64,000 nucleotides of DNA from a virus. Location of the stretch: the IMG/VR virus record IMGVR_UViG_3300028742_000011; one strand, 5' to 3'. The notes under the pieces were generated by a model. That model worked only from the letters and a program-made list of their open reading frames with translations. It had not been told where the DNA came from and did no database searches. The position numbers were made by a program, and so were the translations under genes. Every line of letters starts with the position of its first letter. Positions within the stretch are counted from its first letter, which is position 1. Shown piece by piece: positions 2,976 to 62,790 of the stretch.

Positions 2976-3292
2976 TGTCAAAGCCCAAGATTTACGAACT
3001 CTCGAAAGAACAGAACGACGCGATGGGCAGTCTTGCTAACGGGAAGAGTCCGATCAAGATTGCCGTCGAGCCTAACCCTGAGGATGACCAAGAGACAAAA
3101 GATCGCTTGACAAAAGTACTCGGACAGTGCGACGATCTAGTCAAGCTTGGATTCATCAAAGACATCACGAACAAGTACGCAGAGGACGTAGCGATATCGA
3201 AGCTCAAGACTGGGCGCGGCATCAAGATGTTCCTCATCACCGATGTGGGCTACGATATGTTTCACGGCCCTAAGAACCCCACGATCCACTAA
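2975..3292 (+). CDS. Hypothetical protein
   Basis: ORF coupled to the helicase stop (ATGA overlap) and acidic. No motif. Confidence 0.4.
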   Translation: MSKPKIYELSKEQNDAMGSLANGKSPIKIAVEPNPEDDQETKDRLTKVLGQCDDLVKLGFIKDITNKYAEDVAISKLKTGRGIKMFLITDVGYDMFHGPKNPTIH

Positions 3293-3303
3293 CCTGCAAA
3301 GGA
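3287..3303 (+). promoter_or_regulatory. Conserved 17-nt motif CACTAACCTGCAAAGGA (RBS-containing) 5 nt upstream of ATG 3309
   Basis: Identical 17-mer with identical spacing recurs at 5090..5106 upstream of ATG 5112. It contains AAAGGA. Confidence 0.5.
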
Positions 3304-3308
3304 CGCCC

Positions 3309-4589
3309 ATGATTACGAACCAGTCTGACCTCGACGCCGTACTTGGAGAAGGTGCATCCAATACCATTCTCGGGTACAACACTATCCTTGACCGCCGCGA
3401 CATCCCCGAGCCGAAGAAGGCCAACCATCAGGCCAAGATCGTGAAGATCGAAGCCCTCCTGCCCCACACCAATGCCGACTCCCTCTCCCTCGTTCAGATC
3501 GATGGCTTCCAAGTCGTCGTGCGTAAGGGTCAGTTCCATCCGGGTGATCTGGGCGTCTACATCCAGCCAGACTCCATCGTGCCCCAAACCGAGGCGTTCA
3601 AGTTCATCTGGGAAGCGTACGTCGGCCTCGACGGTACGGTGCCTGAGAACAGACGGCGTATCACGGTACGCAAGTTCCGCAAGGAGTGGAGCGAAGGTCT
3701 CTTGCTTCCTCTCACTGACTTCACTGAGCTGACGGACGGCGCGACCGGCGCGGTCGATCCTTTCTGGAACGCACCGGGTCTGGACATCTCCGACATCATC
3801 GGTGTGACACACTACGATCCCGATGTCGTCGAGAACACACAGGGAGCCAAGGCGTCGAGTGCCAACTCACCGCGCCGAAAGTTCCGGTACCCACGTACTC
3901 TCCGTGGCTGGTTCCATCTCATCAAGCGTATCATCGCTGGGCGCTCGTTGCGTGAGACGACCAAAGACGTGTCGTTCAGCATCCCCGTCTTCGACGTGGA
4001 GGGCTTCAAGAACTACCCGAACACGTTCGAGGAGAACGAGCAGGTAGTTGTTACTGAGAAGGTCCACGGATCGAATGCGCGGTTCATCGCCATCGATGGT
4101 GAAATCTTCGTGGGTTCCCGTAACCAGTGGAAGGCCGACAACGGTTCGACCGTCTGGCACAAGGTTCTCAAACAGAACGAAGACCTGACGCGCTGGCTGC
4201 TTGAGCACCCCGGCCATGCAATCTACGGAGAGGTGACACCTACCCAGAAGAACTTCCCGTACGGGCCGAAGGACGATGCTGTGGAGGGTGAGGTTCGGTT
4301 CTTTGCCTTCGACATCCTGACCCCGCAACGCGAGTGGATGGACTACGGTTCCTTTAGCTTCTCTCTGCTGTCGTACCCCGGCATCGAGATGGCACCCCTC
4401 CTGTACCTTGGGCCGTACAACAAAGACAAGATCATGACGCTGGTGGATGGACCTTCATGGGTCTACCGTGCTAACCACATCCGCGAGGGTGTCGTCATCA
4501 AGGCCACCAAGGAGCGCACGGTTCGAGGACTGGGCCGAGCGATGCTAAAAATCGTGTCGAACACTTTCTTAGAGGGTGACTCTAAGTAA
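3309..4589 (+). CDS. RNA ligase: Rnl2-like nucleotidyltransferase with an N-terminal tRNA-binding (Myf/EMAP-like OB) domain
   Basis: Nucleotidyltransferase motif I is VTEKVHGSN, matching KxHGxN of T4 Rnl2-type ligases. N-terminal KIVKIEALLPHTNADSLSLVQIDG...GDLGVYIQPDS resembles tRNA_bind OB domains. The start is moved to Met 3309 because of the conserved upstream motif. Confidence 0.6.
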   Translation: MITNQSDLDAVLGEGASNTILGYNTILDRRDIPEPKKANHQAKIVKIEALLPHTNADSLSLVQIDGFQVVVRKGQFHPGDLGVYIQPDSIVPQTEAFKFIWEAYVGLDGTVPENRRRITVRKFRKEWSEGLLLPLTDFTELTDGATGAVDPFWNAPGLDISDIIGVTHYDPDVVENTQGAKASSANSPRRKFRYPRTLRGWFHLIKRIIAGRSLRETTKDVSFSIPVFDVEGFKNYPNTFEENEQVVVTEKVHGSNARFIAIDGEIFVGSRNQWKADNGSTVWHKVLKQNEDLTRWLLEHPGHAIYGEVTPTQKNFPYGPKDDAVEGEVRFFAFDILTPQREWMDYGSFSFSLLSYPGIEMAPLLYLGPYNKDKIMTLVDGPSWVYRANHIREGVVIKATKERTVRGLGRAMLKIVSNTFLEGDSK

Positions 4590-4631: not shown

Positions 4632-5078
4632 ATGGATGAAGACTGCACCCCGCAGGCTCGATGGGCTGATAAGCTAATTGGTAAACTGTCTGCCTCCAAA
4701 GCAGAACTTCTTCGTTCGAGTCGAAGTCGGCCCGCCATTAGAAAGGTTCCTATGAGTAAAGCTGAGAGCATCGCCAATTTCGCGGTAGACACCGATGGCA
4801 AAGAAGTCCCCATCAGGTACAAGGCCGCCGAGCTTGTCAACCATCCTGCACCTACGGGTTACATCTGGCAGCGTCGAAACACTTACGATGAAGGCGCTCA
4901 GGAGTACATCAACAAGATCGAGAATGAGAAGGACTTTGGAGAAGGCTTCAACCCTGAGTCCATCCGCAAGTGGAAGGATCGCATCATTGCCAAACAGAGT
5001 AAGTCCTTAGAGGGTTTGAAGAGAGACGACCCGAACAAATACCACGCCAGTGATTACTACATCGCGGTGACTCACTAA
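4632..5078 (+). CDS. Hypothetical protein
   Basis: ORF only. Confidence 0.35.
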   Translation: MDEDCTPQARWADKLIGKLSASKAELLRSSRSRPAIRKVPMSKAESIANFAVDTDGKEVPIRYKAAELVNHPAPTGYIWQRRNTYDEGAQEYINKIENEKDFGEGFNPESIRKWKDRIIAKQSKSLEGLKRDDPNKYHASDYYIAVTH

Positions 5079-8924: not shown

Positions 8925-9393
8925 GAAGTACAACGAGGAGTTTCGGTTCAACAAGAACGCATTTGATGATGTCATGGGTGATCCCTATGCGCTTGAGCCG
9001 TCACTAGGCAACTACCAGAAGCTTCAACGGCGCAGCTCGATCCGAGTAGCCAACAACGAGTTCGACATGGGCAAGGCCACAAAGACACCGGGCCAGCCTA
9101 ATGTTCAGGACTTCTACTGCGACGTTGACAGATGCATCACGGATGTGCTTACGAAGGACGAACAGGTTAGGTTCACTGATACCTACATCTCCGAGTACGG
9201 CAACGTCTTCACCCCGAAGGAGCGCATGAGAATTGAGCAGAAGGTCGGAAAGCTTTTCCGTCTCCGCAAAATCTCACCCGTCTCAAAGTACTTCAACGGC
9301 GTCCGACGAGAGTCGGTTCGCGCACAAGAGAGGATGAAACGCAATGGCAGCAGCAACACTAGTCGAGCAGGACAACCAGCCCTTAGTCTCTGA
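8845..9393 (+). CDS. Hypothetical protein (true start probably downstream, near 8970)
   Basis: The ORF overlaps the Endo VII 3' end in another frame. Confidence 0.3.
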   Translation: MGLHPAKRRRKDVVAARDERPKQSGIEKYNEEFRFNKNAFDDVMGDPYALEPSLGNYQKLQRRSSIRVANNEFDMGKATKTPGQPNVQDFYCDVDRCITDVLTKDEQVRFTDTYISEYGNVFTPKERMRIEQKVGKLFRLRKISPVSKYFNGVRRESVRAQERMKRNGSSNTSRAGQPALSL

Positions 9394-9547
9394 GCTTCGC
9401 AGGCAGCTCCGGTACGAGATCAACGGTGAAGACATCACCAACCCAGAGAAGTTTGCTCTGGAGCAGAAGTTCGGGCTTACTGACCCTGTGTTACTCCAGC
9501 GGGAGCGTAACGCTATCTTCGCGGAGGAGGCTCTGGGCAATGACTGA
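9344..9547 (+). CDS. Hypothetical small protein
   Basis: ORF with an ATGA overlap to the next gene. Confidence 0.3.
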   Translation: MAAATLVEQDNQPLVSELRRQLRYEINGEDITNPEKFALEQKFGLTDPVLLQRERNAIFAEEALGND

Positions 9548-48616: not shown

Positions 48617-50746
48617 TTATGCAACTGTAGGCTGTTGTCCTTCCAACCCGCCAGTGCTCGGCAACCCTTCGGTCGCTTCACTCTGAGCGTTGTCCTTGAA
48701 CGACTCACGTACCAAGTCACGCTTGATGCGATTGTCGTTAGACTGGTCTTCAAGCTGCTGCTTCTGCTGGAACTTCTGTTGGTTGCTCTGTGCAGTAACG
48801 GCGGCTTTGGACGCGGCCTGCGCCTGCTGCGATGCAGCGGCACGCTTCTGTTTCATTTCCGGCGTCATCTTCTTGATGATGTCGTTCTTGTTCTTCCACT
48901 CCGTTGACTCGATCCACATCATGACGATTTCCTTCCAGTTGATGTACTCCTCGTTGATGTCAGCGAGAGATTCAACAATCTGGGGGTTCTCAAGAATCTG
49001 TGTGATGAGAGTCATCGACTGCGCCATTGTGCGTTTCGCCGCAAGCGCGGCACCGGCCAGTACTTCGAACTCGATCTTAGCCGCGTGAAACTGGTCAAGG
49101 TCTACTTCGTAGTCGTCGCCCATCTCTTCGCCCAGTACTGCATAAATCTCGGCGTCTGATAGGTATCGCATGACGAGCATGTCGAGGATGTAGAGGAACG
49201 GGCTGAACACCTGTTCGATGAAGTTGTCGAGCGGCCCGTCGAGACGAGTCGCGCTTGCACTTGCGAGGATGCCTGCGCCTCCTGCGGTGCGCCCCATAGA
49301 AGAACGGGGGCCGGATGACGAGCCTTGTACGAGCGCTTGATCTGCGCCCGATGCGGACTCGGTTGCCTTCTCTGACTCGCTTAGGGCCGACCAGATGTCT
49401 GGTGGAACCTTAGGAGTGTCGAGTAGGTGATATGCTTCTTTGGCGATACCGTCCACAGTTAGAATCTTACCGATCCCGGTGCGTATCATTTGCGTCGGCG
49501 CGTTTGTGTCGCGCTGGCGAAGATAGATCGGGTTGATCCCGAACGACAGCATCTTCAGAATTGCGTTGATGGTGCCTTGGTCGACGCGCTGATTCTGTCC
49601 GACGATAAGGCCGAGGCCCATGCCGTAGAATGCCTTGGCGCGGTTCCACCAGTTTGCACTGAGGAACGGGATAACGCCGAACTTGTTCTGTCCGGTGAAG
49701 ATCACTTTCTTGCGGTCGATGACAAGAACCTTGCGGTTTCTATCCCAATACTCAAGCACTTCCATCTTCTTGAAGAGCATGTCAGGGGTCACCTGAATGT
49801 TCATCTCTTCAGCATGGTGAACTGCACCGCGCATGTACGCCATTGTGTCGCTGGCGAGTACTGGTGCTACGTTCGTGCCGGATGGTGCGAACCACCACTT
49901 GCGAAGCTCGTCTTCAGACTTCGGCAACTCCCACCCATCTTTGTCCGGGTGATCTTCGGGAAGCTCTTCGAGAGCTGCGCGGATATCGTTGAGCTGGTAG
50001 AAGTCCATGTAGCGAACGTCGATCACGAAGTCTGCTTTGCGGATATCCCCGACATCGCACTTCGGGTCTACGAACACCTTGTTGATCGGGCGCGACTCGA
50101 AGAACGGTCGCGGCACAACACGGGACTTACGCTTCACGTCTGGGGGTACATCCAGAGGAACTTTCTGCGTGACCTGATCCTGTCCTACACCACCAGTGAT
50201 CGTGGTCGTAGTGGACTTGCGTTCCCACGTTACCACTTCCTTGTAGTCAACTCCCCACTTCCAGATGCCGGTGCCGAGGCAAGCCATCTGTTCGAGTCCC
50301 CACTTGGTTTCGGTCTTGAATCCACAGTCGTTCAGCAAATAGCTGAAGAGCACGGTCTTGGCATCTATGGTGTCTTGACTCGTGCCTGAGCGCGGTCGGA
50401 GTACCATCGGAGGGTCTGCATAGAACAGGCCCTTGTAGAGAGAGGGTACGACAGAGTTCACTACCTTTGCTACTGTAAATCGTTGTACGTTAGGTTCGAG
50501 GACGTATGTGTTCTCGTACACTGACATCGGGCGCGGCGACTGGTAGAGCAAGTCGGCATCACGCCACAAGAGGTTCCACTGCTTCTCGCTGATGAAAGCT
50601 TCGGCTTTGCTGGCGCTTCCAAGCACGAGTGCTAGGTCAGCGTTTAGGGTCTTGAGGGTTCCACCCTTGCCGTAGTCCAATGGGTCAAGCGTCTCACGTG
50701 CTACACCGTCCGCGACTATCCCCGGAGCTTCATTTAGTTCAGCCAT
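48617..50746 (-). CDS. Portal protein
   Basis: 709 aa, immediately downstream of the large terminase. Acidic/Gln-rich C-terminus. Confidence 0.55.
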   Translation of the reverse strand: MAELNEAPGIVADGVARETLDPLDYGKGGTLKTLNADLALVLGSASKAEAFISEKQWNLLWRDADLLYQSPRPMSVYENTYVLEPNVQRFTVAKVVNSVVPSLYKGLFYADPPMVLRPRSGTSQDTIDAKTVLFSYLLNDCGFKTETKWGLEQMACLGTGIWKWGVDYKEVVTWERKSTTTTITGGVGQDQVTQKVPLDVPPDVKRKSRVVPRPFFESRPINKVFVDPKCDVGDIRKADFVIDVRYMDFYQLNDIRAALEELPEDHPDKDGWELPKSEDELRKWWFAPSGTNVAPVLASDTMAYMRGAVHHAEEMNIQVTPDMLFKKMEVLEYWDRNRKVLVIDRKKVIFTGQNKFGVIPFLSANWWNRAKAFYGMGLGLIVGQNQRVDQGTINAILKMLSFGINPIYLRQRDTNAPTQMIRTGIGKILTVDGIAKEAYHLLDTPKVPPDIWSALSESEKATESASGADQALVQGSSSGPRSSMGRTAGGAGILASASATRLDGPLDNFIEQVFSPFLYILDMLVMRYLSDAEIYAVLGEEMGDDYEVDLDQFHAAKIEFEVLAGAALAAKRTMAQSMTLITQILENPQIVESLADINEEYINWKEIVMMWIESTEWKNKNDIIKKMTPEMKQKRAAASQQAQAASKAAVTAQSNQQKFQQKQQLEDQSNDNRIKRDLVRESFKDNAQSEATEGLPSTGGLEGQQPTVA

Positions 50747-50754
50747 GTTTCTCC

Positions 50755-52791
50755 TTAGTTGAATAGATCGGCAAACGGGTCAGTGCCCATTGGCTCATCG
50801 CGGAACATACGGCTGTTGTCGATCTGGAACGCAGTCACCGGGTTGTCATCATTCACGAGCTGGGCCTTTATGTTCATGTGAGCATACTTGCCAATACCGT
50901 GTACGAGTTGATGACGTTCGTGGTTCTGTTGATCTGCAACATACTGCGAGTTCACCATGTCCACTTTCGATCCCACATCGGCATAAGAGATGAACTGCTC
51001 AACCAATAGGGATAGTGCGGAGATAATGTCGTCGTGTGTGTCGTCGCTGGTGCCCGTGAAGGCTTCGAGTTCGTTGTAGAGTTCGTTCAACCCTTCGCAG
51101 GAGTTGAGGAAGAACATACGCTCGTCGCCAAGCAGTCGGAGTACCGGCTTGGCTTTCATCTGTTTCGAGTTAGACTTCTTGCCGAGGCCCAGAGAGCAGT
51201 ACTCAATCGGAATGCTGATTTGCAGCTTGTCCATCTCTCGACGGAGTTCGCGTCCCATCCACTTCACGCCCACCGAGTCTTCGATGGCGATTCGCTTAGG
51301 CTTCCATTTGTACGCTGTGTTGGCGATAACCGCAGGCAGCTCGATCTCGTTGAATCGTCCGCGCACCATGTTGAGGATGTAGAAACGCCCGCCATATATC
51401 AGCGTGGTCAGGATAACGGTGTAATCGGCCCATGACTTTGTTGAATACGCTGTGTCTACTGTCGTCACGACTACGCCTTGCGGCGGCAGCATGTTGTGCG
51501 GGATAGTGCGCTTCATCAGAAGGGCACGCTCGAACTTGATACGGTTGATCTTTCTCGGGTTGTTGAGGTACTTGATGGCGAACCCTTCCGGGTCCGTCTT
51601 TCTCTCATCATACAAAAAGCTAAAAGGCAGACGCTCAGGGAACCAGAGTTCATAGTCTGGACCTTTGGCGTCTACGTCGGTCTTGCCTTCCTTGATCGCT
51701 TGATCGGTGAGCCACATTGCGGCTCGAAGGTAGGTCTTGGTCTTGTACTCGATGTTCAGTCGCCCGGAGTCAACGCTGCCAGTGATGAGGTTCGACAGAC
51801 CCTCTTCCTTGATGAACGTTTCCTGCTGCTTGATCTTCTCGCCGTAGTAGTCCTTCTCGTCGTACCACGTACCGATTACGTCCATGAATCCGTAAGGGTG
51901 AAGCATGGCTCGATCAATACTGATCTGCTTAGCGATTTTCTTCAAACGGTCAACGGTTTGACTGTTCTCGTTCGTGATAACGTCGTCCAGCTTCATCACG
52001 TCGAAGTGCTTACCGACGAGGGCTTGTCCGATGGACGCGGCCTTCACGGTTGGCTCTTTCTGATCGCCCTGCGCTGGGGAGTGATACTCGAACTGAGTGC
52101 CTGAGGCTGGAGGAACACAGTGCTCAGGGAACAACGTTTGGAACATGCTTTCAGACCATTCCTCTGTCTCTTCGTCGAAGAAGAGCTTGGGCACGAGTAC
52201 CGGCTTGCCGGTCTTGGTGTCGAGCTTCTGCGACTCTATGAGAGTGAAGTGGTTCTTGACTTCTCCGAGGAAGTCACTGGCGAGGTCGAACACACCCGTC
52301 AGGATCAGAATGGTAATCGCGGGGTAGCAACTCACCCACTGAACCACGTCTGCAATGTCGATAGAAGATTTGAACCCGCCTCGTGGGACTAGCAACATTC
52401 GATCCTTGAGGTCAGTATACTGGTTGGCAAACTTCTCTACTGTTACGAAAGTCGGGTTCTTCTGCACGAAAAACTTGTTGCAAATTTCTTCGTGGGTATT
52501 CACGGTGACCTTGTTGTAGGTTTCCAACAGGTGACACATGAAGAACAGGTTGGTCTGGGCCATGAATCGAGCGATGAGCAATAGCTCACCGGTTGAGTCG
52601 TCCAGCGCCTCCTTGTTCATGTCTAGCGCACGTTTCCATGACGCATAAACCTTCTCGCGCTGACCGTCAGTGAGCTTCGAAAAGCTCTTCTTGGCCAACG
52701 CTAGGATATCTTCGTTACTTGTTTCACGGAACTGATAGTTCGGGTTCGTCTTACACGAGGCGATTAGGTCTCGTAGTTTCTGAAGCTTCAT
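50755..52791 (-). CDS. Terminase large subunit
   Basis: 678 aa. The ATPase region has a deviant P-loop VPRGGFKSS. The C-terminal RNaseH-like nuclease has acidic motifs (VVVTTVDTAYSTKSWADYTVI). Confidence 0.65.
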   Translation of the reverse strand: MKLQKLRDLIASCKTNPNYQFRETSNEDILALAKKSFSKLTDGQREKVYASWKRALDMNKEALDDSTGELLLIARFMAQTNLFFMCHLLETYNKVTVNTHEEICNKFFVQKNPTFVTVEKFANQYTDLKDRMLLVPRGGFKSSIDIADVVQWVSCYPAITILILTGVFDLASDFLGEVKNHFTLIESQKLDTKTGKPVLVPKLFFDEETEEWSESMFQTLFPEHCVPPASGTQFEYHSPAQGDQKEPTVKAASIGQALVGKHFDVMKLDDVITNENSQTVDRLKKIAKQISIDRAMLHPYGFMDVIGTWYDEKDYYGEKIKQQETFIKEEGLSNLITGSVDSGRLNIEYKTKTYLRAAMWLTDQAIKEGKTDVDAKGPDYELWFPERLPFSFLYDERKTDPEGFAIKYLNNPRKINRIKFERALLMKRTIPHNMLPPQGVVVTTVDTAYSTKSWADYTVILTTLIYGGRFYILNMVRGRFNEIELPAVIANTAYKWKPKRIAIEDSVGVKWMGRELRREMDKLQISIPIEYCSLGLGKKSNSKQMKAKPVLRLLGDERMFFLNSCEGLNELYNELEAFTGTSDDTHDDIISALSLLVEQFISYADVGSKVDMVNSQYVADQQNHERHQLVHGIGKYAHMNIKAQLVNDDNPVTAFQIDNSRMFRDEPMGTDPFADLFN

Positions 52792-56429: not shown

Positions 56430-56553
56430 TGGCTCACGGGGCTGGGATCGAACCAGCGACCGTTCGGTTACTTTTCGAGATTCCAGAGTTGCACTGGAGC
56501 GTGGCGTTCCACATCTCGCACAGCCGAATGCTCTACCGCTGAGCTACCCGCAA
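56430..56553 (-). tRNA. tRNA-like gene interrupted by a 56-nt insertion (including a 41-nt structured core) in the anticodon loop (GTG/His-like anticodon context)
   Basis: Canonical acceptor (TTGCGGG/CCCGTGA), D-arm (GCTC-AGCGGTA-GAGC), T-arm (GCTGG-TTCGATC-CCAGC) and CCA. The anticodon stem TTCGG/CCGAA encloses 56 nt (loop 5 + 41-nt core + 10) containing a 6-bp helix CGAGAT/ATCTCG and two hairpins. Confidence 0.5.
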
Positions 56554-58371: not shown

Positions 58372-61068
58372 TTGCAGCCAATCACCCCGATTGACATAGA
58401 AACACTCACGCCCCCACTCAAAGTTACTTTCATCCAGAGCCTCGAAGAGCTTGCTTCTCTTCAGGATTTCTTTGCGCGTGTCCAAGCGAACGACAAAGGT
58501 GTACTCGGATGGGACGTTGAAACGACCCCGTTGAAGGACTACTTCTTCCGGCGCTGCCGTACTGTCCAGTTTGGTAACAACGTCGAGCAGTACGTGATCG
58601 ACCTCTTGCCCTTCTGCGACAACGATCCGAACCTACTCTTCTCATGCCAAGGTCAGTACGGCGCGAACCTTCCTCCAAAGCTCAAAGAGTTGATGCTCAT
58701 ATTGGAGCCTGTGTTGTGCTCTCGAAACTTCCTGAAGGTCGGCGTGAATCTCGGCTTCGAGTACATGACCTTCTACTGGAACTTCGGCCTGCGCACGTAC
58801 AACTACTACGATTGCTCGATGGCGGAGAAGTGCATCTGGGCCGGGGCGCACTCGATGAAGGACTACGGCTACTACTCCATGAACGAGATGATGGAGCGTT
58901 ACTTCCGAAAGACTGTGGACAAACAGTATCAGGAATCGTTCACTCTCGACGCAGTGCTTGAGCCGGGTCAGATCAAATACGCCGCACTCGATACGCGGTT
59001 CCCACTGAACATCATGATGGCCCAGAAGGTCGTCGCGTCCGGCATTCGCCTGAAGACTCTCAAAGAGAAGGGCAGCCCGATGGCCAAGTTCATGGAGAAC
59101 CTTGAGCCTAAGAACTCCAGCAACGAGCCTATCGTCATGGGCGACAATCTCAACGAGATTGTCCAGATCGAGAATGACGCCATCGGCATGTTCGAGGACA
59201 TGCACATCCACGGTGAGCGCATGGACAAGGAGAAGTGGCGCAAGCGTATCGACGGCAAGATAGCCGAGCTGACCGCGCTCTATAGCGACTCGCTCGACCC
59301 GTACTTCATCCCTCTCGTCGGCAGCAAGTACGACATAAATACTGATGCTGAGATCGATGCGAAGGAAGCGCAGTGGAAGGCGTTCAACGTCGTCTCCCCG
59401 GCTGAGCTGGAGCTGAAGAAACAGATCGCGGTCTACAAGAAGGCGGGCGACACTGCGGCGATGGCGCACCTCGAAATGCAGAAGGCTCTGCTTGAGCAAC
59501 AGCGTAAGGATTTGAAGGAGACGCTGAAGACTGAGCACAGCGACATGAAAAAGAAGCGGACGAAGATCAAGAACCTCGCCGCCAAGTGTGAAGGCGCGGC
59601 ACTCATCAACTACAGTAGCGATTCCCAGCTATTAGCGGCCCTACAAGAGATCAAGGGCCTCAAGTCGATGAAGAAGTGCGACGATGACACACTGGCGAAG
59701 TATGAGGCCAAGGGCTTCGCTATCTGCGGTTCAATCCGCAAGCTTCACACTCTGTCCAAGGAGATCGGGACGTACGGATACCAGTGGGCTACAGAATGGA
59801 CGAGCAAGCCATGCAAAGAGGAAGGGTGGTTGCACCCCGGCGACGGGCGTCTGCATTGCGTCTACAACCAGTACGATGCTGAGACTGGGCGTTCCTCATC
59901 GGAGAAACCTAATGGCCAGAACCTACCGCAGGACGAAGCAGTTCGCTCCTGTTTTATTGCTGATCCTCCTAACGAGTCCATACGTGTTTCTGATTGCTGC
60001 AATGCTGACGCGCCTCCTCGTGAGGGCATCTATGTTGCGGACTTCTCTGTGCCCGGATTTAGGTGCTCCGCCTGCGGAGAGCTTTGTAACACCCACGCAG
60101 AAGAGTATGTAATCATCACCGCCGATATGTCCGGCGCGGAGCTTCGTATCATCGCGGAGCTGGCACAAGACCCGGTGTGGATCGGTGCTTTCGGTCGCGG
60201 CGAGGACGTTCACTCTGTAGGCACTGAGATTCTGCACGAGCAGGGCTGGGTAGTCCTGACTGAACCCGGCTGCAAGTACTATGCGAAAAAAGAGAACGGC
60301 GAACCGGCGCGGCAGAAGTGCAAATGCAAAGGACACGCTGAGCTGAGGAACGAAAACAAGAGCACGAACTTCCTGCTGGCGTACGGCGGCGGCCCAAGCA
60401 AACTCGCGCAATCAATCGGCAAGACGGTCGAGAAGGCCGCTGAGCTGATGGAGCTGCACTCCAAGAAGTTCCCGCGCATCTGGGCATACCTTGAGCAGTC
60501 TGGCAAGAATGCCTACATGAATAAACGCTCGTTCGATATGTACGGTCGGCGTCGTCTCTTCCCAGACCCCACGTGGGATCGTGCGAAGGAGAAGGCGAAG
60601 GTTGACAACGAAGAGAAGCTGAGATTGTCACCTGAAGAGGCACAATTGAAGTACGACCTCTTCGTCAAGAACAACAACCGCAAGCCGGACAAAGAAGAGC
60701 TGTGGTTCATCGAGCACAACCAGCCGACTCAGAAAGAGATCGGTAAGGCAATGGGCGCGATGTCAGGCTCTATCGAGCGCCAAGGAAAGAACCACGCCAT
60801 TCAGGGTACGAACGCCACGATCATCAAGCTGGCGGGCGGTTGTGGGTTCGACAAGGACGGAGTGCCGTACCTGTGGCATACTCTTCCCACCTTCCGTGCG
60901 CGTCTCATCAAGATGGTGCATGACGAGCTTGTGGTACAATGTCCTAAGCACAAAGCCACTGAGGTAGCAAAGCTGATCGGTGACGCATTCAAGCGGGCCG
61001 CAGCGGTGAAGATGACAGCAGTGGTCATGGAGTTCGATTCGAACATCGCGGAGTGTTGGAAAAAATGA
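58372..61068 (+). CDS. polA: Family A DNA polymerase (Pol I-like) with 3'-5' exonuclease domain
   Basis: Exo I GWDVETT. Motif A ADMSGAELRIIAE. Motif B KSTNFLLAYGG. Motif C VHDELVV. Confidence 0.9.
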   Translation: MQPITPIDIETLTPPLKVTFIQSLEELASLQDFFARVQANDKGVLGWDVETTPLKDYFFRRCRTVQFGNNVEQYVIDLLPFCDNDPNLLFSCQGQYGANLPPKLKELMLILEPVLCSRNFLKVGVNLGFEYMTFYWNFGLRTYNYYDCSMAEKCIWAGAHSMKDYGYYSMNEMMERYFRKTVDKQYQESFTLDAVLEPGQIKYAALDTRFPLNIMMAQKVVASGIRLKTLKEKGSPMAKFMENLEPKNSSNEPIVMGDNLNEIVQIENDAIGMFEDMHIHGERMDKEKWRKRIDGKIAELTALYSDSLDPYFIPLVGSKYDINTDAEIDAKEAQWKAFNVVSPAELELKKQIAVYKKAGDTAAMAHLEMQKALLEQQRKDLKETLKTEHSDMKKKRTKIKNLAAKCEGAALINYSSDSQLLAALQEIKGLKSMKKCDDDTLAKYEAKGFAICGSIRKLHTLSKEIGTYGYQWATEWTSKPCKEEGWLHPGDGRLHCVYNQYDAETGRSSSEKPNGQNLPQDEAVRSCFIADPPNESIRVSDCCNADAPPREGIYVADFSVPGFRCSACGELCNTHAEEYVIITADMSGAELRIIAELAQDPVWIGAFGRGEDVHSVGTEILHEQGWVVLTEPGCKYYAKKENGEPARQKCKCKGHAELRNENKSTNFLLAYGGGPSKLAQSIGKTVEKAAELMELHSKKFPRIWAYLEQSGKNAYMNKRSFDMYGRRRLFPDPTWDRAKEKAKVDNEEKLRLSPEEAQLKYDLFVKNNNRKPDKEELWFIEHNQPTQKEIGKAMGAMSGSIERQGKNHAIQGTNATIIKLAGGCGFDKDGVPYLWHTLPTFRARLIKMVHDELVVQCPKHKATEVAKLIGDAFKRAAAVKMTAVVMEFDSNIAECWKK

Positions 61069-61217
61069 AGATGCCTCATATCAATCCGCACCTTATACCG
61101 AACGTCATGATCGCACTTGACTTCGCAGCAGCGGCAGTGTACGCTTCAGATAAGAACTGGAAGCAGACGGTCTACTGGCTACTGTGTGCAGCCATCGTCT
61201 ACGTGGTGACATATTGA
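61065..61217 (+). CDS. Small membrane protein (50 aa, not in ORF track)
   Basis: The ATG overlaps the polymerase stop (ATGA). Hydrophobic LLCAAIVYVV. Confidence 0.3.
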   Translation: MKMPHINPHLIPNVMIALDFAAAAVYASDKNWKQTVYWLLCAAIVYVVTY

Positions 61218-61225
61218 TCGAGCGA

Positions 61226-61537
61226 ATGGACAGTCTATGGGAGCGCGGCGAATATCTCCTGTTCAAGGATGTGGGGAAGGCCCGTAAAGGCGGCACTACC
61301 CACGTCTTTGACGTGATGTCTAAGACCGGCGCTGCACTGGGAATCATCAAGTGGTTCCCACACTGGCGGAAGTACACGTTCCACCCCGGACCCGAAACAG
61401 TTTTCGATCCAAAGTGCTTGACAGAACTATCCGAGTACTGTACACTGAAAACAGTCGAACACAACGCAGGTAAGGGATACCCCAGAGACTATAGAGGTTT
61501 CTGCAAACCGAAGGTTGACAATCCCGATCAAGTTTGA
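61226..61537 (+). CDS. Hypothetical protein
   Basis: Start chosen at Met 61226. The listed ORF starts at 61184. Confidence 0.35.
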   Translation: MDSLWERGEYLLFKDVGKARKGGTTHVFDVMSKTGAALGIIKWFPHWRKYTFHPGPETVFDPKCLTELSEYCTLKTVEHNAGKGYPRDYRGFCKPKVDNPDQV

Positions 61538-61544
61538 TACAATT

Positions 61545-61945
61545 CAAAAAGTTACGCATGGTATGAAGCTCCAAAGTCGGTAGACGGACGTGGGTTCGAA
61601 TCCCACCATCTCCACCAAAACAACTCGTAAGCGTACTGCATACGGGGATGTCAAGGTTTCGACGGATACAGATAGAAGAGTGGACTGTGCAGGTGCCTAG
61701 CGACCTTGACTGCTGGAAAAAAAGAACTGTCACCGAAAGTGTCAGCCACAGCCGTGTCCGTTTCAGCGTTCGCAAGAGCGTTGTTGCAGCACAGCTACTT
61801 GCGGCCTAATAACCGCTGGGGCCTCTTGACGGGCCTAGCAACAGAAGGGGGAGCGATCCCCCAGTCTAAACATTTACGTGGGAAGGCTGACGAATGGATT
61901 TTCATGGGGTCGGTCGGCGGGTGATTGGGGTTGTCACTGGCGAGG
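61545..61945 (+). ncRNA. ssrA: Circularly permuted (two-piece) tmRNA (ssrA) candidate
   Basis: The upstream acceptor piece ends ...GACGGACGTGGGTTCGAATCCCACCATCTCCACCA (T-arm, 3' acceptor strand, CCA), very like the E. coli tmRNA 3' end. The coding piece starts 26 nt downstream with GGGGATGTCAAGGTTTCGACGG (cf. GGGGCUGAUUCUGGAUUCGACGGG). GGGGATG pairs with CATCTCC including a G3:U70 wobble. The in-frame tag ends ...AAQLLAA-TAA-TAA at 61786..61812, followed by CCGCTGGGGCC (cf. E. coli UAAUAACCUGCUUAGAGCC). The ends are approximate. Confidence 0.55.
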
Positions 61946-61962
61946 GTTTATAAAGGAGATGT

Positions 61963-62241
61963 ATGTCTGGACAAGAGCAGTTGGTAAAAGGCGGCAAGAG
62001 TTCGTTTCCGTTCTTCTCTATTTTGACCTTGATTTTTGTCGTCGCTAAACTTGCTGGGTTCTTCCCGCATTCATGGTGGATTGTGTTCATACCCCTGTGG
62101 GGACCGATATCGGTACTGGTGGCACTGTCGTTGCTGTTTATTCTGGCAGCGTTGATCTTCGCAATAGTGGGTTCCGTTATCGACGAGATCGATAAGGTAC
62201 GCAGCAAGAAAAAGAAAGACGACGGTAAATGGCTCTCCTGA
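61963..62241 (+). CDS. Membrane protein (2-3 TM helices)
   Basis: AAGGAG RBS. Hydrophobic FFSILTLIFVVAKLAGFF and VLVALSLLFILAALIFAIV. Confidence 0.45.
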   Translation: MSGQEQLVKGGKSSFPFFSILTLIFVVAKLAGFFPHSWWIVFIPLWGPISVLVALSLLFILAALIFAIVGSVIDEIDKVRSKKKKDDGKWLS

Positions 62242-62374: not shown

Positions 62375-62449
62375 TGTGAGGTAGCTCAATGGCAGAGCAA
62401 TCGCTCGATAAGCGAGAGGTTGAAGGTTCAACTCCTTCTCTCACAACCA
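62375..62449 (+). tRNA. tRNA-Ile-like (anticodon GAT) with an atypical anticodon loop (C33)
   Basis: Acceptor TGTGAGG/TCTCACA (one G:U). D-arm GCTC-AATGGCA-GAGC. Anticodon stem ATCGC/GCGAG (27:43 mismatch), loop TCGATAA. T-loop TTCAACT. CCA encoded. Confidence 0.55.
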
Positions 62450-62790
62450 AATGCAACTGTGGTCGAGAGTATGTGTACGACCGTGCTAAGGGGCACAAAC
62501 GACATATTTGCAATTCCTGCAATGCCAATAGACGTAGGAATGAGATCAAAAGGCGTATGGTTGAGTATAAGGGTGGCAAATGTGTCGCCTGTGGTTACGA
62601 TAGATGCATCAGGGCTTTAGGATTTCATCACCTTAGTCCTGCCAGCAAAAACTTTGATCTTTGCAGGGCATACACTAAGCCTTGGGAGACCGTCAAGACA
62701 GAGTTGGATAAGTGTGATCTACTGTGTGCTAATTGTCACATGGAAGAGGAAGACTTACTTACTCGACAAGCCGGGGAGTGGCGCAAATAG
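62389..62790 (+). CDS. HNH endonuclease (CxxC...HH...CxxCH type); the 5' end of the ORF overlaps the tRNA, so the true start is probably downstream
   Basis: KCVACGY...ALGFHHLSPASKNFDL...KCDLLCANCHME. The first 61 nt of the ORF overlap the tRNA at 62375..62449. Met 62557 or a GTG after the tRNA are candidate starts. Confidence 0.5.
   Translation: MAEQSLDKREVEGSTPSLTTKCNCGREYVYDRAKGHKRHICNSCNANRRRNEIKRRMVEYKGGKCVACGYDRCIRALGFHHLSPASKNFDLCRAYTKPWETVKTELDKCDLLCANCHMEEEDLLTRQAGEWRK

Follow-up and report, generated by a model that had tools for sequence, protein, structure and literature searches.

A circularly permuted transfer-messenger RNA gene in a phage related to the Tunturiibacter phage Tunturi_3

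Two-piece transfer-messenger RNAs (tmRNAs), which are encoded by circularly permuted ssrA genes, were reportedly described by Keiler, Shapiro and Williams in 2000 for Caulobacter and the alphaproteobacteria, said to be the mechanistic paradigm, and by Sharkady and Williams in 2004 for the betaproteobacteria. In two-piece tmRNAs that have been characterised, tRNA-processing enzymes split the precursor into two RNAs joined by base pairing (PMC11915505). The phage tmRNAs known in 2014 were one-piece (PMC4131195), and by 2022 a survey of phage isolates had listed 133 unique phage tmRNAs, 53 of them two-piece, with 50 of these 53 coming from marine/aquatic samples (PMC9004378). Here, an ssrA gene of the permuted type has been analysed in the IMG/VR virus record IMGVR_UViG_3300028742_000011, a stretch of 64,000 nucleotides (nt) that is called the window below and to which the coordinates refer. 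The gene is a real permuted tmRNA and a divergent new example of an element type already known in other phages. Judged from its sequence and that of its relatives, it is very probably a functional circularly permuted ssrA of a lytic-type tailed phage related to Tunturi_3.

Permuted order and the tRNA-like domain

A covariance-model scan of the whole window against the 4227 families of Rfam 15 has revealed a match to the model tmRNA_permuted (RF04321) at 61555-61809 on the plus strand, with 76.0 bits (gathering score 47, E 8.8e-13). The alignment covers the full-length model (positions 1-213) and is the sole non-tRNA match at gathering score in the window. A permuted tmRNA was independently called by ARAGORN at 61522-62015, with a tag differing from the homology-based one, so that both programs proposed as checks by the original prediction reported the permuted type, Rfam above its curated threshold. 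The alphaproteobacterial (RF01849), cyanobacterial (RF01851) and standard (RF00023) tmRNA models gave no match at gathering score in the window. In a permissive search of the region, the betaproteobacterial model (beta_tmRNA, RF01850) was the only lineage-specific one with a notable score, 46.8 bits against a gathering score of 84, confined to the tRNA-like core (model positions 81-162 of 331), and this sub-threshold match outscored the alphaproteobacterial, cyanobacterial and standard models. Since RF04321 is passed and RF01850 is not, the gene is a permuted tmRNA that is atypical for the alpha-, beta- and cyanobacterial lineages. No riboswitch match was found in the region by the Rfam scan or the permissive search.

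The original prediction had placed the T-arm, the 3' acceptor strand and the CCA end (61590-61617) upstream of the 5' acceptor strand (61644-61650), an order borne out by direct reading and by RF04321. The pairing of the two acceptor strands over 7 of 7 positions was likewise confirmed, the third pair (G61646:U61611) being the G3:U70 wobble that had been claimed. The claim that no T-arm or CCA lies 3' of the coding piece also held in the Rfam and ARAGORN results, the next tRNA-like element being a bona fide tRNA-Ile at 62375. The elements of the gene are the following:

61515-61543, plus strand: sigma-70-type promoter, TTGACA, 17 nt, TG-n-TACAAT (TTGACA-17-TGATACAAT)
61550-61617, plus strand: acceptor piece, about 68 nt, RF04321 model positions 1-63, the 5' end deduced from the promoter
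61556-61559, 61568-61571, 61580-61582 and 61584-61586, plus strand: 3'-side strands of helix P2, from the RF04321 alignment
61590-61606, plus strand: T-arm, GUGGG/UUCGAAU/CCCAC, from direct reading and Rfam
61607-61613, plus strand: 3' acceptor strand CAUCUCC, followed by the discriminator A61614 and CCA at 61615-61617
61618-61643, plus strand: intervening segment, 26 nt, aligned to the unpaired linker of RF04321
61644-61650, plus strand: 5' acceptor strand GGGGAUG, pairing 7/7 with 61607-61613
61644-61663, plus strand: 5' acceptor strand with conserved block, GUCAAGGUUUCGAC, from direct reading, Rfam and relatives
61644-61862, plus strand: coding piece, about 219 nt, from the Rfam alignment to 61809 and beyond it from relatives and folding, the 3' limit being approximate
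61663-61665, 61667-61669, 61678-61681 and 61687-61690, plus strand: 5'-side strands of helix P2 (region 61663-61690), from the Rfam alignment
61691-61716, plus strand: putative pseudoknot PK1, stem 1 from the Rfam alignment and stem 2 read from the sequence
61729-61812, plus strand: tag reading frame, with resume codon GUC at 61729-61731, tag to 61806 and TAA TAA at 61807-61812
61801-61816, plus strand: helix 5, GCGG (61801-04) with CCGC (61813-16), both stops in the loop, from the minimum free energy (MFE) fold
61816-61862, plus strand: 3' domain, from comparison with relatives and folding

To collect relatives, the permuted core was searched for as the exact pattern TCCACCA, 12-42 nt, GGGNNTGTCANGGTNTCGAC, which was found on 15 IMG/VR contigs and 49 metagenome contigs, and a looser permuted pattern was found on 105 viral contigs. 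The exact UGUCA-type pattern was present in 0 of 185,579 species-representative genomes. The D-loop block UGUCANGG marks the collected relatives and was also part of the search pattern, and the alignment columns GGG..UGUCA.GGU.UCGAC are invariant partly by construction, as they served in the same search. In the window, this region reads GGUUUCGACGG at 61655-61665.

The structure of the tRNA-like domain was assessed in 37 distinct relatives aligned with the covariance model. The acceptor stem and the T-arm are 100% paired, with compensatory changes that in the T-arm occur at all 5 pairs; G3:U70 is kept in 37/37 sequences, and the permuted order, with CCA before the 5' strand, is seen in all 37. 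In helix P2, which links the acceptor piece to the coding piece, compensatory changes are seen in P2a (91% paired) and in P2c (77.5% paired). When the structure of the window's Rfam alignment was transferred to the relatives, 80.6% of the cells were paired in this alignment versus 42-53% in controls with slid partners, and in a MAFFT alignment 74% versus 40-48%. The T-arm, the split 7-bp acceptor stem and P2a were also found de novo by RNAalifold in 26 non-identical relatives (11 of 18 pairs compensatory), and MFE cofolding of the two predicted mature pieces yields the acceptor stem and T-arm, so the folding of a tRNA-like domain from two pieces that the prediction called for was recovered in both ways.

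Tag, processing and proposed mechanism

Two features set the tag frame, namely the double stop and the point at which the Rfam alignment ends (...GCuGCcUAA). In most relatives the resume codon is GCC, GCA or GCU behind an A-rich single strand ending in ..AAnU, and the non-alanine codons GUC, GUG and GAC are frequent. At this position GAACU is followed by GUC in the window, GAAUC by GUC in Tunturi_3 and GCGU by GUG in contig L067. From this alignment the tag is most likely VTESVSHSRVRFSVRKSVVAAQLLAA (26 residues by homology, 61729-61806), added behind the charged alanine, and its translation is predicted on the same comparison. It includes the stretch AVTESVSHSRVRFSVRKSVVAAQLL, its start resembles that of contig L020 (ATEGVN...), and its end ...AAQLLAA (GCG GCC at 61801-61806), the two stops and the box after them (CCGCUGGGGCC, 61813-61823) are all found as originally read.

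Soil/peat relatives have likewise long tags of 17-33 residues ending in LAA, MAA or AAA. Contigs L021 and L051 keep the peptide ...DSM..KVLAFVPR... across synonymous codons for Ser (TCT/AGT), Val (GTG/GTC), Phe (TTC/TTT) and Gln (CAA/CAG), which points to selection on the peptide. Tags of 27-33 residues were found in the soil/peat viral contigs L018, L021, L042, L051 and L063; an internal motif ..K/N-V-L-A-F-x-P.. is common to L018, L021 and L051, with a looser NLLMFP in L042 and none in L063.

Helix 5 is kept in relatives with other sequences (GGCAG/CUGCC, GGCUG/CAGCC, GGCUGU/ACAGCC). The 3' domain of the window gene consists of a hairpin CUGGG...CCUAG (61816-61838), a conserved single strand CAACAGAA (61839-61846) and a terminal hairpin GGGGG-AGCGAU-CCCCC (61847-61862), and that of the relatives forms an H-type pseudoknot or two hairpins around ..AACAGAA.., often with a clear terminator at the end. 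The terminal hairpin is the last feature conserved in relatives. The gene was found within the extent originally given (61545-61945), but nothing supports its extension to the right limit of 61945.

The promoter shows 11/12 consensus matches in a consensus scan, with an extended -10 TG, and is thus near-consensus; the transcription start is predicted at about 61549-61551, some 5 nt ahead of the first paired base of the RNA. A second strong sigma-70-like match (TTGACA-17-TACACT, 10/12) was observed at 61418-61446 on the plus strand, within the upstream open reading frame (ORF) of 117 residues and about 100 nt ahead of the tmRNA promoter. The acceptor piece contains the 3'-side P2 strands, T-arm, 3' acceptor strand, discriminator and encoded CCA, and the coding piece the 5' acceptor strand, D-loop analogue, 5'-side P2 strands, PK1, tag frame, helix 5 and 3' hairpins. 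In PK1, stem 1 (AGGU/ACCU) joins 61691-94 with 61703-06 and stem 2 (CC(U)AGC/GCUGG) joins 61696-61701 with 61712-61716. The intervening segment, freely variable in sequence and length in relatives (10 to about 40 nt), is predicted to be cut out of the precursor.

In the mechanism proposed for this gene, the promoter at 61515-61543, found by computation, would drive a single precursor. In this RNA, GGGGAUG pairs with the 3' acceptor strand encoded upstream of it, and this stem builds the tRNA-like domain with the T-arm and P2, as shown by the covariance model, the covariation and the folding. By analogy with known two-piece tmRNAs, a cut by RNase P 5' of G61644 and 3' trimming to the encoded CCA would remove the 26-nt spacer, so that two base-paired RNAs would remain, the acceptor piece (about 68 nt) and the coding piece (about 220 nt). 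Host alanyl-tRNA synthetase (AlaRS) may then recognise G3:U70 and A73 and charge the RNA, which may be brought to stalled ribosomes by SmpB of the host together with EF-Tu. Translation would resume at GUC 61729, add (A)VTESVSHSRVRFSVRKSVVAAQLLAA and stop at UAA UAA in the helix-5 loop, the ...LAA end being a degron of the type recognised by ClpXP. The benefit for the phage is probably an added ribosome-rescue capacity in infection.

Phage context, probable host and alternative explanations

The gene was claimed to be phage-encoded, and the content of the window agrees with this. PHROG profiles identified a large terminase (50755-52791, minus strand) and a portal (48617-50746, minus strand), and also tail fibre, primase-helicase, helicase, ribonucleotide reductase and exonuclease genes, besides which the window holds a DNA polymerase gene (58372-61068). 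Among cultured phages, the Tunturiibacter phage Tunturi_3 alone is closely related to that of the window, with an identity of 59% for the DNA polymerase, 62% for the terminase and 74.5% for the portal. The terminase protein of the window is found as an identical copy on metagenome contigs from many samples. No related prophage was found in the 185,579 species-representative genomes with a DNA-polymerase-profile scan and the exact pattern, the profile scan giving one distant match (26% identity) in a metagenome-assembled genome of Saccharibacteria.

A permuted tmRNA is also present in Tunturi_3, at L001 9213-9437 (63 bits), downstream of the DNA polymerase gene, syntenic with the window copy and in a gap between annotated genes. 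The whole element extends over L001 ~9204-9526, which corresponds to PP885686.1 ~88083-88405 (complement), between gp134 and gp133, and the tag predicted for it, VNKIDRSVVAVVPASRKVRVAQFATMLAA, would resume at GUC. It was missed by ARAGORN and is without annotation in the GenBank record. To our knowledge, tRNAscan-SE is not designed for tmRNA detection. It was the only RNA-gene finder in the Tunturi study. Tunturi_3 is a 97.6-kb podophage from Arctic tundra soil whose isolation host belongs to the Acidobacteriota, and in the paper describing it three tRNAs are listed and no tmRNA is mentioned.

Several points weigh against a functional tmRNA of the kind proposed, or against parts of it. The resume codon is GUC and not the usual GCN. 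In the family alignments, pairing of P2b in its placement on the window reaches only 33-41%, and that of the PK1 columns 41-45%, alignment quality being limiting for the latter; P2b covaries by eye, with GCUC/GAGU in the window, GUGAC/GUCAU in L051 and GUGGUC/GAUCAU in L021. The MFE cofold favours over P2 an interrupted helix of 16 pairs (61551-61573 with 61817-61839), in which the acceptor piece pairs through its 5' tail with the post-tag hairpin region. ARAGORN reads another tag, GKADEWIFMGSVGG, at about 61880-61924, and no intrinsic terminator with a U-tract follows the gene on the plus strand. No SmpB gene was detected below E 1 in the 64-kb window by tblastn with an approximate E. coli SmpB query, a weak test; host SmpB would accordingly be used, and function would hinge on compatibility with the host SmpB and AlaRS. 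The host is probably an acidobacterium, as the kinship with Tunturi_3 makes this probable but not demonstrable.

Two of these competing readings have been rejected. The interrupted helix was not adopted because an equivalent complementarity is absent, by eye, in L051 and because P2a and P2c covary. The ARAGORN tag was discarded because it lies 3' of helix 5 and the hairpins, is without an ...AA end and has no counterpart in the relatives read. The complementarity of 61551-61573 and 61817-61839 could be an alternative precursor conformation or due to chance.

Among the other explanations for the locus, the one that survives best, improbable as it is, would be a tRNA-like decoy, that is, an RNA that is made, binds SmpB and/or is charged, and titrates or re-routes host trans-translation with its mRNA part unused. 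Mycobacteriophage DS6A has a tag-less tmRNA-like gene for which such a role was proposed, and RNAs consisting of the tRNA-like domain only were reported to inhibit tmRNA (PMC4131195, PMC11915505). This precedent, the weak support for PK1 and the atypical resume codon of the window gene would fit a decoy, whereas the complete in-frame tag with its canonical ...LAA end, double stop and helix 5 would not. Neither would the C-terminal character kept by the tags of the relatives, the L021/L051 peptide kept via synonymous changes, nor the A-rich spacer and resume-codon position, which fit the family. Somewhat less probable still is a decaying relic, acquired once and since deprived of expression or function. 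The scores below lineage-specific thresholds (beta_tmRNA, 46.8 versus 84) and the lack of a clear terminator could be taken in this sense; however, all the elements tested are intact (7/7 acceptor pairs, G3:U70, A73, CCA, T-loop UUCGAAU, open tag frame with stops), a near-consensus promoter lies directly upstream, and the compensatory changes in relatives show continued selection on the structure.

It is very hard to credit that the locus is an attP (phage attachment site) fragment derived from the tmRNA gene of a host, or else a small protein gene beside a tRNA-like fragment: tmRNA genes are indeed frequent integration sites of phages and genomic islands, which then carry 3' fragments of them (PMC4131195, PMC9004378), but the presence of both acceptor halves, P2 and the tag in permuted order exceeds a 3' fragment, and Acidobacteriota genomes, with 1589 standard tmRNA calls versus 5 beta-type permuted calls (PMC11915505 Table S2), almost always have a one-piece gene, so that a host-derived fragment would not be permuted; and the ATG-initiated ORF of 53 residues in the tag frame (61648-61809) was rejected as a gene because its ATG lies inside the acceptor strand without a ribosome-binding site and because the long ORF is not conserved, being broken in L024 and L010, among others, by in-frame stops just upstream of the resume codon (for instance UAA in ..AUAAAU ahead of GCx).

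A functional permuted tmRNA of the phage is therefore preferred. Few soil phages of the Acidobacteriota type are known, and their gene repertoire is thereby extended by a ribosome-rescue RNA. It is possible, if on the whole doubtful, that phages propagate a clade of permuted tmRNAs which includes the window gene and evolves largely apart from the cellular ssrA lineages. The D-loop block of the relatives, the long tags of the soil branch, the frequent non-alanine resume codons and the restriction of the exact pattern to viral and metagenome contigs would fit this reading. If this were true, phages would bring permuted tmRNA into hosts such as Acidobacteriota that use one-piece tmRNA, and the long basic tag might serve beyond ClpXP marking, for example in selective routing or in competition with the host tag. 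The Tunturi_3 homologue and the host Tunturiibacter psychrotolerans X5P2 provide a ready experimental system, which could reveal what a phage gains from a two-piece tmRNA in a one-piece host. For annotation, the lesson is that ARAGORN picks the wrong tag in the window and misses the Tunturi_3 copy, and that the merged model RF04321 detects both. The understanding of tmRNA or phage biology is unchanged in kind.

Other permuted tmRNAs occur in the same habitat. The very large viral contigs L010, L027 and L070 (45, 162 and 248 kb), from the same peat metagenome series, carry another one with the short tag AETPAYAMAA, so several unrelated phages of this habitat have two-piece tmRNAs; the L010-type tmRNA gave no match in blastn against phage records.

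Regarding the neighbouring genes, the small ORFs that flank the tmRNA (61184-61537 and 61963-62241) gave no Pfam match. Between tRNA-Ile and tRNA-Met lies a plus-strand ORF (62389-62790) whose product has HNH-like and zinc-finger motifs (CxxC ... CANCH) and matches no Pfam family at E 1e-3. As listed, the ORF begins within tRNA-Ile (62375-62449). It may be a homing endonuclease gene of the tRNA cluster, like the one annotated beside the tmRNA of the Stenotrophomonas phage Marzo. A full-length Rfam tRNA match (47.1 bits) was found at 56433-56553 on the minus strand, with 52 nt in the anticodon loop versus 3 in the model. It is not called by ARAGORN. In the fold, the cloverleaf is normal and its anticodon loop is interrupted by a structured insertion (about 49 nt); without this, the loop would read CU-GUU-AA and the gene would be a tRNA-Asn. 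The tRNA-Asn(GTT) of Tunturi_3, located on the corresponding side of the polymerase gene, is uninterrupted. A group I intron would be very much longer than the insertion, which could be an unusual small intron or the sign of a disrupted gene. Another ORF on the plus strand (3243-4589), adjoining tRNA-Trp (4663-4737), contains RNA ligase (PF09414) and OB-fold (PF21189) domains, which suggests a phage-encoded RNA repair/ligation function that could be tied to the interrupted tRNA or to tRNA-targeting host defences.

Comparison with known two-piece and phage tmRNAs

The betaproteobacterial two-piece tmRNA shares the permuted order with the window gene, and RF01850 is the best-scoring lineage-specific model for the tRNA-like domain of the latter, although the D-loop analogue has the consensus UGuaCUGG in RF01850 and UGUCAAGG in the window. 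The Caulobacter/alphaproteobacterial two-piece tmRNA is a cellular chromosomal gene with its own lineage structure and a short tag of the AANDNFAEE... type, whereas the window gene is phage-borne. Phage-encoded ssrA genes in tRNA-rich genomes are found in mycobacteriophages (Bxz1 group) and in Bacillus phage G, but with the one-piece standard order (PMC4131195).

Phage-encoded two-piece ssrA genes like that of the window are present in the OM43 phage Melnitz, where the copy lies behind an early promoter, in pelagimyophages and in cyanophages (PMC9004378). The Melnitz gene has an alphaproteobacterial grouping and a glutamine riboswitch in its 3' domain, whereas the window gene is closest to the beta-type model and has no riboswitch match; it also comes from a soil/peat phage, in contrast to the aquatic origin of most two-piece phage tmRNAs.

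A blastn search of the region against 50,697 phage records gave nothing at E 1e-5, and at E 1 only short matches of the tRNA-like domain, which led to Stenotrophomonas phages. The tmRNAs of Stenotrophomonas maltophilia myophages, annotated in the GenBank records of Marzo and Yut2, and an unannotated copy in DLP_6 were scanned here and are permuted. Those of the phages Marzo, Yut2, IME-SM1, Mendera, Moby and DLP_6 resemble the window gene in being phage-borne, placed among tRNA genes and with CCA upstream of GGGG, and the tag of Marzo (VAANDDSYTVRIAA) starts with GUC, as does that of the window. They reach 113-125 bits with the window-lineage model R1 and 119-137 bits with RF04321. Stenotrophomonas is a gammaproteobacterium with a standard one-piece tmRNA. 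The unannotated tmRNA of DLP_6 (KU682439.2, L077 ~1441-1784; 137 bits with RF04321 and 104 bits with RF01850, tag ANDDSFAPMAIAA) lies between two hypothetical coding sequences and slightly overlaps both.

The window gene differs from this group in several respects. RF01850 is passed by the Stenotrophomonas phages (95-104 bits versus the threshold of 84) and, if marine viral contigs are included, with up to 141 bits (95-141 bits), whereas the window reaches 46.8. The tags of the Stenotrophomonas phages are ANDD-like and have 13-14 residues versus 26, and their D-loop block is UGCCA/UGCCC versus UGUCA. Finally, they are T4-like myophages of about 160 kb, and the window phage is related to a podophage of 97.6 kb. 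The Marzo tmRNA has been termed betaproteobacterial-class (PMC8928761).

The gene type given in the original prediction is thus supported, and the rarity implied there has to be toned down, as two-piece tmRNAs of phages are documented (PMC9004378) and those of the Stenotrophomonas phages are permuted. From these earlier examples and the Stenotrophomonas cases, the presence of a permuted tmRNA in a phage, even with a one-piece host phylum, is already established. What is particular to the window gene is its Tunturi_3-like soil/peat lineage, its divergence from the three lineage models, its long basic tag and Val resume codon, and the fact that the copy of its cultured relative Tunturi_3 had previously been overlooked.

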